64,000 bases of DNA, from assembly GCA_002009975.1 (NCBI GenBank), contig MTLP01000031.1, positions 108,573 to 172,572 on the forward strand. The letters run 5' to 3'. Positions 4,703 through 11,102 of this stretch are shown here, in pieces. Under the pieces are notes generated by a model. The model was not told where the DNA came from, did not search any database, and saw nothing but the letters and a program-made list of their open reading frames with translations. Position 1 is the stretch's first letter. Every line of letters begins with the position of its first letter. Source of the DNA: Thermococcus sp. JdFR-02 (lineage in GTDB: Archaea; Methanobacteriota_B; Thermococci; Thermococcales; Thermococcaceae). The translations under genes and the position numbers were made by a program.

Positions 4703-4871
4703 GATGCCCTATGATGTTCAGGAGTGAGTGTCTTTGGAATAGGAGTTAGAGAGTTTAGAATTCTTCTGGTTAGCTTATTCTTCAAAATCAAAGGGCGGGA
4801 TTGTTTTTGGAATACACATTCTTAGGTTTGAAGGTATGAATAACGCTTATTCTGATCTTTTTAAACTTTTT
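4703..4871 (+). promoter_or_regulatory. Structured 5' leader of trpB2 with uORF MMFRSECLWNRS (4711-4749)
   Basis: GCCCT/AGGGC and TGAT/ATCA terminal pairing, GCTTATTCT direct repeat (4773-4781, 4845-4853), U-tracts at 4858-4862 and 4867-4871; function is inferred. Confidence 0.45.
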
Positions 4872-4885
4872 AGGAGGTGTTTTAG

Positions 4886-6226
4886 ATGAGAAGAGTTAAG
4901 GCAGTTTTAAAAGCCGAAGATATGCCAAATAGGTGGTACAACATTTTGCCAGACTTGCCAGAGACTCTACCATTGCCTTTAGATCCAGAGACAAACAAGC
5001 CCATAAATCCAGCTAAGCTTGAGAGGATTTTTGCAAAGGGATTGGTTAGGCAAGAAGTTAGCGACAAAAGGTATGTAAAAATTCCAGAGGAAGTTTTGGA
5101 GAAATACGTAAAAGTTGGTCGTCCAACACCGCTTTTTAGAGCAACACATCTAGAGAAGGCATTGAAGACCCCAGCAAGGATTTACTTTAAATATGAAGGG
5201 GAAACGATAACGGGAAGCCACAAAATAAACACCGCTTTAGCACAGGTCTACTACAACAAGCTTGAGGGAATTGAAAGGGTTGTAACAGAGACGGGAGCAG
5301 GACAATGGGGAACTGCTTTATCATTAGCCGGAGCTTTGTTTGATCTAAAAGTTAGGGTTTACATGGCAAGAGCCAGCTATCAACAAAAGCCATATAGAAA
5401 AGTGCTCATGCAAGTGTATGGAGCAGAGGTTTATCCTTCTCCAAGTGATAGAACGAAGGTTGGAAGATACTTCCTATCGCAAGATCCAAATCACCCCGGT
5501 GGATTAGGCATAGCAATAAGTGAAGCGATTGAAGATGTATTAACGGATGAAAAAGCGCGCTACTCGTTAGGTAGTGTCTTGAACCATGTATTAATGCACC
5601 AGACAATCATAGGGGAAGAGGCTAAACTTCAAATGGAAATTCTTGGGGAAGAGGCAGACATAATAGTTGGCTGTGTTGGAGGAGGGAGCAACTTTGCTGG
5701 AATAGCATATCCCTTCATTAGGGATGCAATAAAAGGAAGAAAGGAGATTAAATTTTATGCAATAGAACCTAAAGCCGCACCATCGATGACAAAGGGTATT
5801 TACACTTACGATTACGGAGACAGCGGGAGGTTAACGCCTTTAATAAAGATGCACACCTTAGGGCACATCTACAATGTTCCACCAATCCATGCGGGTGGCT
5901 TAAGATATCACGGTGTCGCACCAACTTTGAGTGTTTTAATTAATAACAACATCGTTAGTCCAAAAGCCTACCATCAAACCGAGATTTTTGAAGCAGCTAT
6001 GCTCTTTGCAAGGACTGAGGGAATTGTTCCAGCACCAGAGAGTGCCCATGCAGTTAAAGGGGTTATAGATCTTGCTTTAAAAGCTAAGGAGAAAGGCGAA
6101 GAAAAAGTAATACTTTTTAACTTAAGTGGACACGGACTTTTGGATTTAAAAGGCTATGAAGACTATTTGGATGGAAAAATCCAAGATTATGAACCAAAAG
6201 AGATTCCAATTTTGAAAAGCTATTAG
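4886..6226 (+). CDS. trpB2: Stand-alone tryptophan synthase beta chain type 2 (TrpB-like PLP enzyme)
   Basis: [11 protein letters not shown]-lysine motif, [43 protein letters not shown]. Confidence 0.93.
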
Positions 6227-6227
6227 T

Positions 6228-6878
6228 TTATCTTTTTTCCAGCTTTTCTAAAATTTTTCTTGGATAAAAACTGATCGAAGCCTTTGCTTGGGGAATTTCC
6301 ATTCCAATTGCAATTCCAAAGCTTGCTAAGTCTCTTGGAGCTCTTACTTCCCAAAAACTTTCTGCTGAAGAAGTTAAAAATCTTGGAACCTTGTATTTTT
6401 CTATCAATCGCCAGTTTCTCATCATAAACTTTAAAATGTTCGCCCTCTCGTAGGGATTTGCCCTTAAAAGGGGAGCAAGAGAAAAGCCTATTGCAACATC
6501 ATTCTTAGCCGCTAATCTAGCAAGAACATGATCTAAGCCAGAGTCTCTTCTTCCAAATTCTGGGCTTATTAAAGCATCGACACCAATTTCAAGAGCAAAG
6601 CGGTTGATTTTTAAGCTCCCACCTTGGACATATATTAAAGCTTTGAGATTCCTATTTTTCACTTCCCTAATCAAAGAAGGTTTGTTTGTTATCAAAAGCA
6701 GGGCAACTTTTTTATAACGCTCTCTAAGTTCTTTAAGCTCTTCTTTGAGCTTCCCATAATCTGGACTTTTCTCTAACTTAAGCTTTTTTGTAAAGACTAC
6801 TTCATCAAACCATTCTTCAGCCAATTCGTAAGCCTTTGCATCCCTAATATCCATCTCAATGAACTGTAATGATGTCAT
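6228..6878 (-). CDS. rnp3: Ribonuclease P protein component 3 (Rpp30)
   Basis: [19 protein letters not shown] and [17 protein letters not shown] motifs; superoperon context. Confidence 0.92.
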
Positions 6879-7330
6879 TCGCTCAACCACTCTCCAATAG
6901 CCCTTACAACGGTCTCTTTCTTCATTGGGAAGGATTTAACCTTTATTCTAACATGAATTACATCCTCTCCATCTAAAACTTTAATCTCTCCAAGGTAAGC
7001 CTTCTGCTTATCAAAGCGAATGTAGAAGGTTCCGTTCTCATCTACCTTTTCCTCTAAATTCTCCAAGAGAAATGCTTTATCTTCCTCGCTTAAGATGTTT
7101 TTGAGGTTTTCTAAAAACTTTCTAACGTTCCTACTTCTCTTTATCTCTGCATCAATAACGAGTATGGGATTTCCAAAGTATCCCTCTGTCTCAACCATTT
7201 CAAACTCCACATCTTTTGGAGACAAATCTTCAGGGAAGAGAGTTTCTAAAGCTTCTAAAACCTTTTCAGGATCTTCAGTGGCATGGACAAATGTTCTAAT
7301 TTTGACATTATGAGCATTAAGCTTAACCAT
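6875..7330 (-). CDS. RNA-binding protein, DUF54-like (exosome-associated family)
   Basis: [26 protein letters not shown] motifs; usual neighbour of rnp3 and rpl15e. Confidence 0.85.
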
Positions 7331-7412
7331 AAATTTCACCCCAAAGTTAATTGGAAATAAGGTTTAAAAGCTTTTAACTGCCAAAAATACCTAAGAAAGA
7401 AATTAAACACCA

Positions 7413-10635: not shown

Positions 10636-10685
10636 GTGGTTCTCCGCAGAGCGGAACATCCCGCGGGCTAAACCCGCTTAGTCGT
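10636..10685 (-). promoter_or_regulatory. Structured rpl15e leader, probable eL15-Euryarchaeota r-leader
   Basis: GC-rich hairpins GCGGG-UUUAG-CCCGC and UCCGC-UCU-GCGGA between the TATA (10705-10712) and the RBS. Confidence 0.65.
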
Positions 10686-10726
10686 GGTGAGTTTAGAGTT
10701 TAGGTTTTTAAAGGTTACGATGGATT

Positions 10727-10921
10727 CTAAGTTTGCACTTTCCTTTTGCGATCCAAGAGTAGTTCTCCATCAATCCCAACATTCTCAGGAGAATTTTCCT
10801 TTATAAGCACAGTTATATGTCTTATTCCATAAATCTTAGATGCTACCTCTGTAAGTTCCCTAACTAACTTCCTCTTCTTTTCAATATCAATTGGTGGTCC
10901 TTCGATGATTATGGTCGGCAT
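10727..10921 (-). CDS. 4-oxalocrotonate tautomerase family protein (DmpI-like)
   Basis: N-terminal catalytic Pro (MPTIIIEG), ENVGIDG, about 64 aa. Confidence 0.85.
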   Translation of the reverse strand: MPTIIIEGPPIDIEKKRKLVRELTEVASKIYGIRHITVLIKENSPENVGIDGELLLDRKRKVQT

Positions 10922-10973
10922 CGTATCACCCATTAAAATTTGCGTTGAAACATCATAAAAATTTCCTATCTTC

Positions 10974-10988
10974 CAAAACTTTTAAATA
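10974..10988 (+). promoter_or_regulatory. BRE/TATA promoter of the leuS leader
   Basis: CAAAACT-TTTAAATA, predicting a start site near 11011. Confidence 0.6.
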
Positions 10989-11010
10989 CTAAAACCTCAA
11001 AAATAACGCC

Positions 11011-11102
11011 GATGCCAATGAGGGGGGATAGAGTTCTCAACGATTAAAGGTTACTTCTATGCTGATCCCCCTATTTGGCACTATCAACGCTTTTCCCCTT
11101 TT
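11011..11102 (+). promoter_or_regulatory. Structured 5' leader of leuS with uORF MPMRGDRVLND (11012-11047)
   Basis: TGCCAA/TTGGCA and GGGGGAT/ATCCCCC stems, followed by pyrimidine tract CTTTTCCCCTTTT; function is inferred. Confidence 0.5.

Follow-up and report, generated by a model that had tools for sequence, protein, structure and literature searches.

Conserved leaders of trpB2, leuS and other genes suggest a modular charged-tRNA sensor, probably based on programmed +1 frameshifting, in Thermococcaceae

In the prfB frameshift cassette, a Shine-Dalgarno (SD)-like element lies 3 nucleotides (nt) before a slippery CUU codon, which is followed by a slow A-site codon and a stop in the 0 frame, and the product is read in the +1 frame. 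Matching the expression of aminoacyl-tRNA synthetase and amino-acid genes to amino-acid supply is a process whose archaeal form is largely unknown. Hungry-codon +1 shifts, as described by Gallant and for the yeast Ty1 site CUU-AGG-C, combine a scarce aminoacyl-tRNA at the A site with forward re-pairing of the P-site tRNA (PMC5009743, in part). Excerpts of a 2021 review of archaeal recoding give only one programmed frameshift reported in Archaea, a -1 case (PMC8211752). Here, we analyzed a 64,000-nt stretch of the Thermococcus sp. JdFR-02 genome (the window, whose numbering is used throughout), in which the genes trpB2 and leuS follow long leaders. The leaders measure 183 nt for trpB2 (4703 to the ATG at 4886) and 145 nt for leuS (11011 to the ATG at 11156), and each holds a short upstream open reading frame (uORF) with a codon for the amino acid that its gene handles. 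The evidence is comparative and is joined by one RNA run from a relative. We put the probability at roughly 0.7 that a prfB-like programmed +1 frameshift at a hungry codon ties the expression of these genes to a shortage of charged tRNA.

A sequence-only reading of this DNA had described the two leaders as sharing a 5' architecture, and its account of the 5' ends held. The GATGCC of the trpB2 leader (4703) begins 29 nt past the first T of CTTTAAGAG (4674), the GATGCC of the leuS leader (11011) begins 30 nt past the first T of TTTAAATA (10981), and both short uORFs are present, at 4711-4749 and 11012-11047. These leaders were compared across 81 genomes of the same family, covering six genera (numbered g2, g3 and so on below), with the window genome as the sole member of its genus. 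For each of four gene families (trpB2, leuS, trpS and ileS), 30 orthologous loci were fetched. The leader motif lies within 400 nt upstream of the gene at 27 of the 30 trpB2 loci and 29 of the 30 leuS loci. At the remaining leuS locus (L036, in the g5 genome G009:C1, ~228004-229296), the conserved core around the Leu codon, here called the Leu module, lies about 1.27 kb upstream, compared with about 110 nt otherwise, which suggests an insertion between the Leu module and leuS. Over its first 28 nt, the leuS leader hardly varies (GATGC..ATGAGG.GGGA.....TTCTC).

Exact-pattern scans gave the same picture at the level of whole genomes. Of the 81 genomes, 80 hold the Leu module ATGAGGRGGGAKNNNNTTCTC, which always lies a short way upstream of leuS and in a single copy per genome, except in G074, where two copies stand at contig ends; the reversed pattern, used as a control, matched once. 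The Trp module GGAGTGAKYGTYTTTGG was found in 62 of 81 genomes, with 0 matches for its reversed control. With a wider sample, the exact Leu pattern occurred in 91 of 96 genomes of the family versus 0 of 36 genomes of five other families in the phylum, where diverged forms are possible. The orthologous leaders keep both the uORF frame and the cognate triplet, whose loss would have refuted the sequence-only reading: at the aligned position, TGG before trpB2 and CTC before leuS never change. The trpB2 alignment is also invariant for the ATG that is in frame with TGG, and a stop follows 1-4 codons past TGG in 25 of the 27 leaders (exceptions L014 and L004). Among the 29 orthologous leuS leaders, the 0-frame stop comes 3-9 codons past CTC, with the stop codon counted. 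The shared leader features are beyond chance and conserved across the family.

The modules have one layout: a start codon at the 5' end of the transcript, a purine-rich stretch complementary to 16S rRNA, 3 nt, an NUU codon, the sensor codon for the cognate amino acid and a nearby stop. The purine-rich stretches GGUGAU, GGAGUGAU and GGGGGGAU (often followed by CGAG) can pair with the 16S 3' end of relatives, which reads ...GGCUCGAUCACCUCCU in three of them; the 16S gene of the window genome is missing from its assembly. The SD-like stretch of trpB2 module 1 is complementary to the 16S 3' end ...GAUCACCUCCU, again in three relatives. In all modules the complementary stretch sits 3 nt before NUU, and NUU is invariant at the P-site position, with CUU, GUU or UUU used. 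Reasoning on the sequences, re-pairing one base forward is good for UUU-U, CUU-U and CUU-C and reaches two of three positions for GUU-C and UUU-A. By codon usage in this genome, the sensor codons rank as minor synonymous ones (CTC 12.0, ATC 14.4 and TGC 2.2 per 1000), and the 0-frame stop lies 1-11 codons past the sensor codon in nearly all leaders, with two exceptions among trpB2. An SD-like stretch, a 3-nt spacer, NUU and a minor sensor codon repeat the prfB layout, and on this basis a +1 frameshift at a hungry codon is the reading we favor.

The frames downstream of the modules follow a common arithmetic. The trpB2 leaders hold 1-3 modules, with 2 in this genome and 3 in most of the largest genus, g3. 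In the window, the predicted path runs from the ATG at 4711 through shifts at 4735 and 4808 to the TGA at 4887-4889, which overlaps the main ATG at 4886. Across the leaders of trpB2 and of an NSS/SNF transporter gene that also carries Trp modules, the TGG-to-TGG distance between modules 1 and 2 is 52, 55, 58, 61, 64, 67 or 73 nt, and it equals 1 mod 3 in 44 of 44 distinct leaders whose second module is recognizable. Between these modules, the +1 frame has 0 stops in all 44, whereas the other two frames have 1-4. The +1 frame re-reads the next Trp module as ...D-C-F-W, followed by a stop. The regular expression behind these spacings missed 10 of 54 leaders (short g2 leaders, the NSS leader of this genome and L078), most of which were covered by a cascade simulation; loci L062 and L066 were dropped for having no main gene within reach. 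In the simulation a +1 shift was made at every in-frame TTT-TGG or CTT-TGG, in 42 distinct trpB2 leaders of 26 lengths that use 1, 2 or 3 shifts, only one of them a single shift. The +1 cascade arrived at the trpB2 start in 42 of 42 leaders and ended exactly on ATGA in 35 of them, compared with 0/42 at the start for a -1 cascade, 1/42 for a single shift and 0/42 for no shift. For the NSS leaders, the +1 cascade reached the start in 10 of 10 cases and the -1 cascade in 0 of 10. In the 35 leaders ending on ATGA, the first TGG and the ATG stand 1 mod 3 apart where two shifts are made, 2 mod 3 where three are made and 0 mod 3 in the single-shift case. Leaders whose third module is out of register skip that module, and their length compensates by one base. 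The match between module number and leader length is covariation at the level of the reading frame.

Leaders with a single module behave alike. From [GC]TT-CTC, the leuS +1 frame runs to a stop +1 to +23 nt past the A of the ATG in 28 of 29 leaders, mostly at ATGGTAG and over 12 lengths (109-154 nt), and the -1 frame gets to the start region in 7 of 29. All 29 of 29 ileS leaders keep the +1 frame open as far as the start, and 24 of them end exactly on ATGA; the -1 frame gets there in 2 of 29. The corresponding trpS counts are 29 of 29 and 0 of 29, and the trpS leader of this genome is alike.

The suggestion that one element is reused with a swapped codon was borne out beyond the two leaders for which it had been made. 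The codon matches the gene in six gene families and for four amino acids: UGG stands before trpB2, trpS and the NSS transporter gene, CUC before leuS, AUC before ileS, and UGC or UGU in a gene for a winged helix-turn-helix (wHTH) protein. The extra copies of the Trp module lie upstream of the NSS/SNF transporter gene in 10 of 10 cases, nine of them loci in g6 and g2 and one on contig C4 of this genome, and their uORF (e.g., MTFRSECFWKYSW, then stop) has 2-3 Trp codons. When this genome was scanned for short leaderless ORFs that follow a TATA box, 53 candidates came up: trpB2 was re-found, trpS was found with the uORF MKLGDCFWLW-stop, and the rest, bar one, look unrelated. Orthologous trpS leaders read M-x-G-[DG]-x-[FL]-W-[LP]-W-stop or a close variant at 29 of 30 loci by regular expression, besides the variant of this genome. 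The ileS leader was found in 29 of 30 loci as GATGCCCATGAGGGGGGA[TG]NNNTTTATC, with AUC (Ile) at the sensor place, and the 30th is cut by a contig end. A second NSS-family gene (521 amino acids, contig C15 near 5113, plus strand) has the uORF MTIMHCF-stop, ending ...TGT TTT TAG, which resembles a Trp module with TAG for TGG and may be a coincidence or a decayed module.

Other synthetase leaders had been expected to carry the motif, and this held for some of them: trpS and ileS do, but 13 of the 16 synthetase matches examined lack the element. In that survey of this genome, which gave 16 family matches with the Arg, Glu, Ala, Phe and class-I Lys families left without a separate search, a long foreign frame ending on the start was seen only in leuS, trpS and ileS. 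A genome-wide scan for long upstream frames (24-80 codons) ending at gene starts returned 439 candidates, mostly the 3' ends of upstream genes, and was too noisy to yield new members.

The Cys class, found with a generic pattern scan, carries the module inside a gene. The pattern ATGAGG[AG]GGGAT...[CG]TT-TG[CT] opens a wHTH reading of 67-88 codons in the +1 frame, in g6, g4 and g2 as well as on contig C9 of this genome. The class comprises 12 loci (L162-L173) plus this genome; 20 loci were fetched, and the other 8 (L174-L181) are chance matches in unrelated sequence. Only a +1 shift at the Cys codon makes the wHTH DNA-binding domain readable (HTH_20, HTH_11 and HTH_5, all above cut-off), which is the classic signature of a frameshifted gene. 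In the g2 genes, the 0 frame is MRRDRLC-stop, so that the stop comes directly past the Cys codon. The neighboring genes (Sua5 and glycosyltransferases) gave no pointer to a regulon.

The 2-3 direct repeats of an 18-nt motif in trpB2 leaders could also be read as binding sites, on DNA or RNA, for a protein that acts apart from translation, for instance a Trp-activated repressor or a TRAP-like protein. This is extremely unlikely, since a single module with only its codon changed serves Leu, Ile and Cys genes, the modules of leuS, ileS and trpS are single copies and not repeats, and frame rules are not expected of a binding site. Oligo-T tracts were likewise considered as the point of the Trp repeat and rejected, as they leave the Leu, Ile and Cys modules unexplained.

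From the conservation, the codon match, the open +1 frames and the frame arithmetic, we infer a frameshift, its dependence on charged tRNA and the switching on of the gene, as follows. With the 5' end of the mRNA at or next to the AUG, a ribosome would load on the short upstream frame. When charged tRNA is plentiful, the sensor codon would be decoded, the stop would be met a few codons on, and the rest of the leader would stay untranslated. When charged tRNA is scarce, the A site would stand empty and the ribosome would slip forward one base, either by re-pairing of the P-site tRNA (NUU to UUN) or by out-of-frame binding of the next tRNA. The shifted ribosome would then follow the +1 frame, which stays open as far as the main start. 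With one exception, trpB2 leaders would need such a shift at every one of their 2 or 3 modules, one after the other, and a steep response would be expected from such serial shifts. The ribosome would end on or just past the main start (ATGA for trpB2, ATGGTAG for leuS), with the SD sequence and the U-rich tracts already crossed. Candidate routes for switching on the gene are termination-reinitiation, opening of the ribosome-binding site, prevention of a premature transcript end, or a mix of these. Such control would amount to direct self-control for leuS, ileS and trpS, supply control for trpB2 and the transporter, and a gated regulator in the case of the wHTH protein. At somewhat better than even odds, we further hold that Thermococcaceae use a general, modular sensor of charged tRNA based on +1 frameshifting, that is, a portable cassette (UGG, CUC, AUC, UGC) controlling three synthetases, a Trp salvage enzyme, a probable Trp transporter and a transcription factor, in which the serial cassettes of trpB2 would form a multiplicative cascade ending in AUGA.

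The 5' ends of the leaders are consistent with loading at the uORF. In orthologous trpB2 leaders, a TATA box is followed after ~22-24 nt by G-ATG, with spacing as in the window. The trpB2 transcript may also start 3 nt later, at the G of the first ATG, in which case the out-of-frame first AUG would be gone. A transcript starting at 11011, as predicted, would make the leuS uORF leaderless, with its AUG at +2. Reads were available for the leuS leader of a g2 relative (L060, another genome than that of the window), from one raw-read run whose growth conditions are unknown. Depth is 0 upstream and rises at the G of GATGCC, where 15 reads begin, so that the uORF AUG is at +2 in this relative; the sequence-only reading, which starts downstream of the element would have refuted, is favored by this result. 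The first 56 nt are covered at a depth of ~240-290, the remainder of the leader at ~85-100 and the gene at 20-30 or less, and 181 reads end 5-8 nt past the 0-frame stop. These reads fit a leaderless uORF and an attenuated leader; the frameshift itself is outside their reach. No insertions or deletions at ≥10% were seen in the reads, which argues against transcriptional slippage. We rejected slippage on this count, taken from one run, and for the shortness of the T runs in the Leu and Cys modules. The GATGCCnATG context (protein MPM...) also occurs ~25-30 nt past a TATA-like box in several ordinary genes (e.g., C6:65331, C2:195994 and C1:244390, the last on the minus strand). Since several ordinary genes start G-ATG-CCN-ATG, GATGCCnATG looks like a common leaderless start context that is not special to regulatory leaders.

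Abundant short leader RNAs ending just past the uORF stop are also what classical leader-peptide stalling would give, with a pause at the cognate codon that alters RNA folding or shields the RNA from a termination factor. The short uORF indeed holds a cognate codon, sometimes 2-3 Trp codons, U-rich tracts (CTCTTTT and similar) are found in the leaders, and a G-run/C-run helix is possible in that of leuS. Under stalling alone the open +1 frames would be a by-product, which leaves unexplained why the +1 frame is open to the start in five gene families, why modules are spaced by 3n+1 and leader length matches module number, and why the wHTH domain lies in the +1 frame. Moreover, RNAalifold found no conserved alternative hairpins. 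We regard stalling as the sole mechanism as unlikely.

Conserved RNA structure was sought in MAFFT alignments of 27 of the 29 leuS leaders and 23 of the 27 trpB2 leaders, with near-duplicates left out. For both alignments, RNAalifold returned only short local pairs (-5.4 and -4.9 kcal/mol, 1 compensatory pair each), and neither gave a terminator and an antiterminator hairpin that overlap the leader ORF and exclude each other. The closing stems GCCCT/AGGGC and TGCCAA/TTGGCA of the earlier description are present in this genome, but the consensus folds do not conserve them. The UUGGCA partner is shifted or absent in other genera, and AGGGC at 4792-4796 is part of the second frameshift module and no dedicated stem arm. 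The helix between the G-run and C-run of the leuS leader, seen in single-sequence folds, is possible in most genera and absent in g2, and RNAalifold did not recover it; it would possibly form when the leader is untranslated. Searches of Rfam 15, including the T-box family RF00230, gave no match in either leader at the gathering score or at E up to 10. With no Rfam match and no conserved structure, an RNA fold does not explain the conservation instead. Conserved RNA structure as the main explanation was rejected on the weak consensus folds and the missing G-run/C-run helix in g2. By eye, a C/D-box or kink-turn reading of ATGA...CTGA was also rejected: the terminal stem is not adjacent, and CTGA is the 0-frame stop.

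An untranslated RNA element that binds tRNA, like a T-box specifier, or a small ligand, like a riboswitch, would account for a cognate triplet in a conserved context, and UGG plus C or A could, as an idea, pair with the 3' end of a tRNA. We judge this very unlikely, given the absence of Rfam matches to E up to 10 and the very weak consensus folds just described, and given that variable regions keep reading frames and not pairings, with indels in multiples of 3 or 3n+1. The sequence-only reading had cited leader-peptide attenuators and T-boxes as the bacterial controls of such genes; for these leaders, a programmed +1 frameshift is likelier than a hairpin attenuator or a T-box-like specifier. 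In the trpB2 leaders of relatives, a conserved box, TTATTCCCTCnnnTTTGGGAC, with a T run stands just before the SD (alignment columns ~255-285), where a short CCC/GGG hairpin is possible. The box is degenerate at window ~4843-4870 and largely lost in this genome. It may be a terminator or an SD-masking element that would be melted by the last +1 reading.

Separate initiation in the +1 frame is another way to read the leaders. In a relay of separately initiated, overlapping uORFs without a frameshift, a ribosome stalled at the first sensor codon would block the +1-frame start and so control the next uORF and then the gene. A +1-frame GUG does stand 4 codons ahead of the shift site in Trp module 1 and in the trpS module, where independent initiation could occur, and in most trpB2 and NSS leaders the stop of the out-of-frame first AUG overlaps this GUG as GUGA. 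Yet the GUG has no SD stretch at a workable distance, and most leaders have no ATG, GTG or TTG ahead of the site in the +1 frame of the Leu, Ile and Cys modules or of the second and third Trp modules. The only good start in the wHTH gene is the 0-frame AUG. A chain of inhibitory steps would also have opposite signs for 2 and for 3 modules, yet leaders of either kind are present inside one genus. The relay is, in our assessment, improbable.

Several observations weigh against a programmed frameshift, in addition to the +1-frame GUG of these two modules. The slip would be imperfect for Ile (UUU to UUA) and for the GUU form of Leu (GUU to UUC), where out-of-frame binding at the A site may operate instead. 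In most genera, the first AUG (GATGC) of trpB2 and NSS leaders does not share the frame of the sensor uORF, and its own frame closes at a TGA within module 1. This would mean either a transcription start 3 nt later or the use of the second AUG. Seven of the 42 trpB2 leaders miss ATGA and fall outside the mod-3 rule, six from g5 ending at -3 or +11 and L022 (g3) at -4. The NSS leaders end at +5 to +28 and not on ATGA, and one leuS leader, L039, has its +1 stop at -6, short of the start. In shuffled segments, chance alone leaves the frame open in 7-31% of the trials per sequence for leuS and in 23-52% for ileS, so a single leader is weak evidence, and related genomes do not count as independent. 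A plain stalling attenuator would also account for the abundant short leader RNAs, and the G-run/C-run helix hints at an added role of RNA structure. Overall, the support is comparative apart from the RNA run, and the frameshift, its amino-acid dependence and its effect on the genes are predictions. The features are collected in Table 1.

Table 1. Positions of the leaders, predicted frameshift modules, +1 reading frames and genes (window numbering unless a contig is given; uORF, upstream open reading frame; SD, Shine-Dalgarno; BRE, transcription factor B recognition element).
Feature	Position	Strand	Remarks
TATA-like box TTTAAGAG, trpB2 leader promoter	4674..4681	+	A-rich BRE-like stretch 5' of the box; from the sequence
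Predicted trpB2 leader transcription start, G of GATGCC	4703	+	Inferred from TATA spacing and by analogy with leuS leader reads of a relative
trpB2 sensor uORF, 0 frame, MMFRSECLWNRS-stop	4711-4749	+	Trp codon 4735-4737
trpB2 frameshift module 1 (predicted)	4721..4737	+	SD-like GGAGTGAG, spacer TGT, putative slippery P-site CTT 4732-4734, sensor TGG 4735-4737
trpB2 +1 segment entered at module 1, GIGVREFRILLVSLFFKIKGRDCFWNTHS-stop	4736..4825	+	Reads module 2 in the sensor frame; TAG 4823-4825 would end the segment absent a second shift
trpB2 frameshift module 2 (predicted)	4793..4810	+	GGGCGGGAT, TGT, putative slippery TTT, sensor TGG 4808-4810
trpB2 final +1 segment past module 2	4809..4889	+	Crosses SD AGGAGGTG 4872-4879; TGA 4887-4889 overlaps ATG 4886-4888 as ATGA
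trpB2	4886..6226	+	TrpB-like pyridoxal-phosphate enzyme, 446 amino acids; Pfam PALP; NCBIfam NF009057 / TIGR01415, well above cut-off; regulated gene (predicted)
TATA box TTTAAATA, leuS leader promoter	10981..10988	+	Follows BRE-like CCAAAAC; conserved in the 29 orthologous leaders whose motif lies within 400 nt
Predicted leuS leader transcription start, G of GATGCC	11011	+	Inferred in this genome
leuS sensor uORF, 0 frame, MPMRGDRVLND-stop	11012-11047	+	Leu codon CTC 11036-11038; frame kept in all orthologues
leuS frameshift module (predicted)	11018..11038	+	ATG, SD-like GAGGGGGGAT 11020-11029, spacer AGA, putative slippery GTT 11033-11035, sensor CTC 11036-11038
leuS leader G-run 11022-11027 and C-run 11067-11071	11022..11071	+	Can pair; single-sequence folds at 37 and 80 °C
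leuS +1 ORF, 41 codons, entered at the module	11037..11162	+	No start codon before the module; crosses SD AAGGAGGT 11142-11149; TAG 11160-11162 overlaps leuS codons 2-3
leuS	11156..14020	+	Leucyl-tRNA synthetase, 954 amino acids; Pfam tRNA-synt_1, Anticodon_1, Leu editing domain; regulated gene (predicted)
NSS transporter leader of this genome	contig C4 ~86300-86510 = L061:519-705	+	Outside the window
trpS leader of this genome	contig C2, start near 21802 = L100/L101	-	Outside the window
ileS leader of this genome, 3' part only	contig C15:1-92		Module lost at the contig end
wHTH gene of this genome	contig C9 ~24785-25046 = L185:2785-3046	+	ATG AGG AGG GAT TTA CTT, then TGC; 0 frame ends after 20 codons

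Two observations from the surroundings of the leaders stand apart from the sensor. The trpB2 gene is flanked by RNase P subunit genes (Pop5/Rpp14 and p30) and a gene of an RNA-binding family (window 4169-4531 and 6228-7339, both on the minus strand). The sole Rfam match near the leaders is the eL15-Euryarchaeota ribosomal-protein leader, on the minus strand at 10633-10676 (35.1 bits; gathering score 33.7), 5' of the eL15 gene at 10026-10619 on the same strand, which is unrelated to the finding.

No description of such a system was found in full-text searches, archaeal transcriptome studies or the excerpts of PMC5009743 and PMC8211752; supplementary start-site and 3'-end maps for Thermococcales, which lay outside these searches, may list these 5' ends. 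If the proposal is true, it would provide the first programmed +1 frameshift in a cellular archaeal gene and the first amino-acid attenuation-like control in Archaea, and synthetase genes would be under a form of control distinct from both T-boxes and hairpin attenuators. The mechanism would be testable, with a built-in specificity code of one codon per amino acid, and it would mean that the prfB principle has been reinvented or generalized for sense codons. The serial frameshifts would be an ultrasensitive design unseen before, and the wHTH gene would encode a transcription factor whose synthesis is gated by Cys-tRNA. Small genes and leaders would be mis-annotated in every Thermococcales genome, and a compact, heat-stable, codon-programmable switch would become available for hyperthermophile synthetic biology.

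Comparison with known systems places the proposed sensor among regulatory frameshifts and leader-peptide controls. Like antizyme, it would use a +1 frameshift to report a metabolite level and feed back on the pathway (PMC5009743, in part), whereas the antizyme signal is polyamine and its shift takes place at a stop codon inside a coding gene. A ketolide-induced shift in the leader uORF of ermC sends ribosomes into the spacer, unfolds the mRNA and turns on the gene (passages of PMC5009743), which resembles the route proposed here. However, the ermC signal is a drug on the ribosome, independent of a particular codon, and the system is without an SD-like stimulator, a stop-start overlap and amino-acid specificity. 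Frameshifting of starved E. coli is regarded as error in the same source (PMC5009743, as excerpted), whereas the archaeal site is conserved and carries a putative stimulator. Ty1 makes a fusion protein with a constitutively rare tRNA, whereas the archaeal site is tied to genes of the same amino acid.

The trpL, leuL and pheL attenuators share with these leaders a short upstream frame with codons of the amino acid made or handled downstream, and translation speed is their signal. These attenuators use stalling together with alternative hairpins or occlusion, whereas the leaders described here usually have one sensor codon, no conserved hairpin pair and a conserved second frame. The Cys-rich uORFs of mycobacteria are reported to be leaderless as well (bioRxiv 10.1101/834739). 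T-boxes also place synthetase and amino-acid genes under a swappable specifier triplet that matches the amino acid, but the T-box is a large conserved fold that binds uncharged tRNA directly. The archaeal leaders have no such fold, and their triplet would be read by the ribosome.

The prfB cassette is alike in having an SD-like element 3 nt before a P-site NUU, a 0 frame that ends early and a useful reading in the +1 frame. It is also alike in that decoding of the slow A-site codon would report on the gene's own product: for leuS, ileS and trpS, little charged tRNA would give more frameshifting and more synthetase. The two differ in the sensor, which in prfB is a stop codon read by a release factor and here a sense codon read by an aminoacyl-tRNA. 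They differ in that the shift here would occur in a leaderless upstream frame and act on a separate gene through a stop-start overlap, with the wHTH gene excepted. The system described here is, moreover, archaeal, and its module is reused with four codons, with up to three predicted shifts in series.

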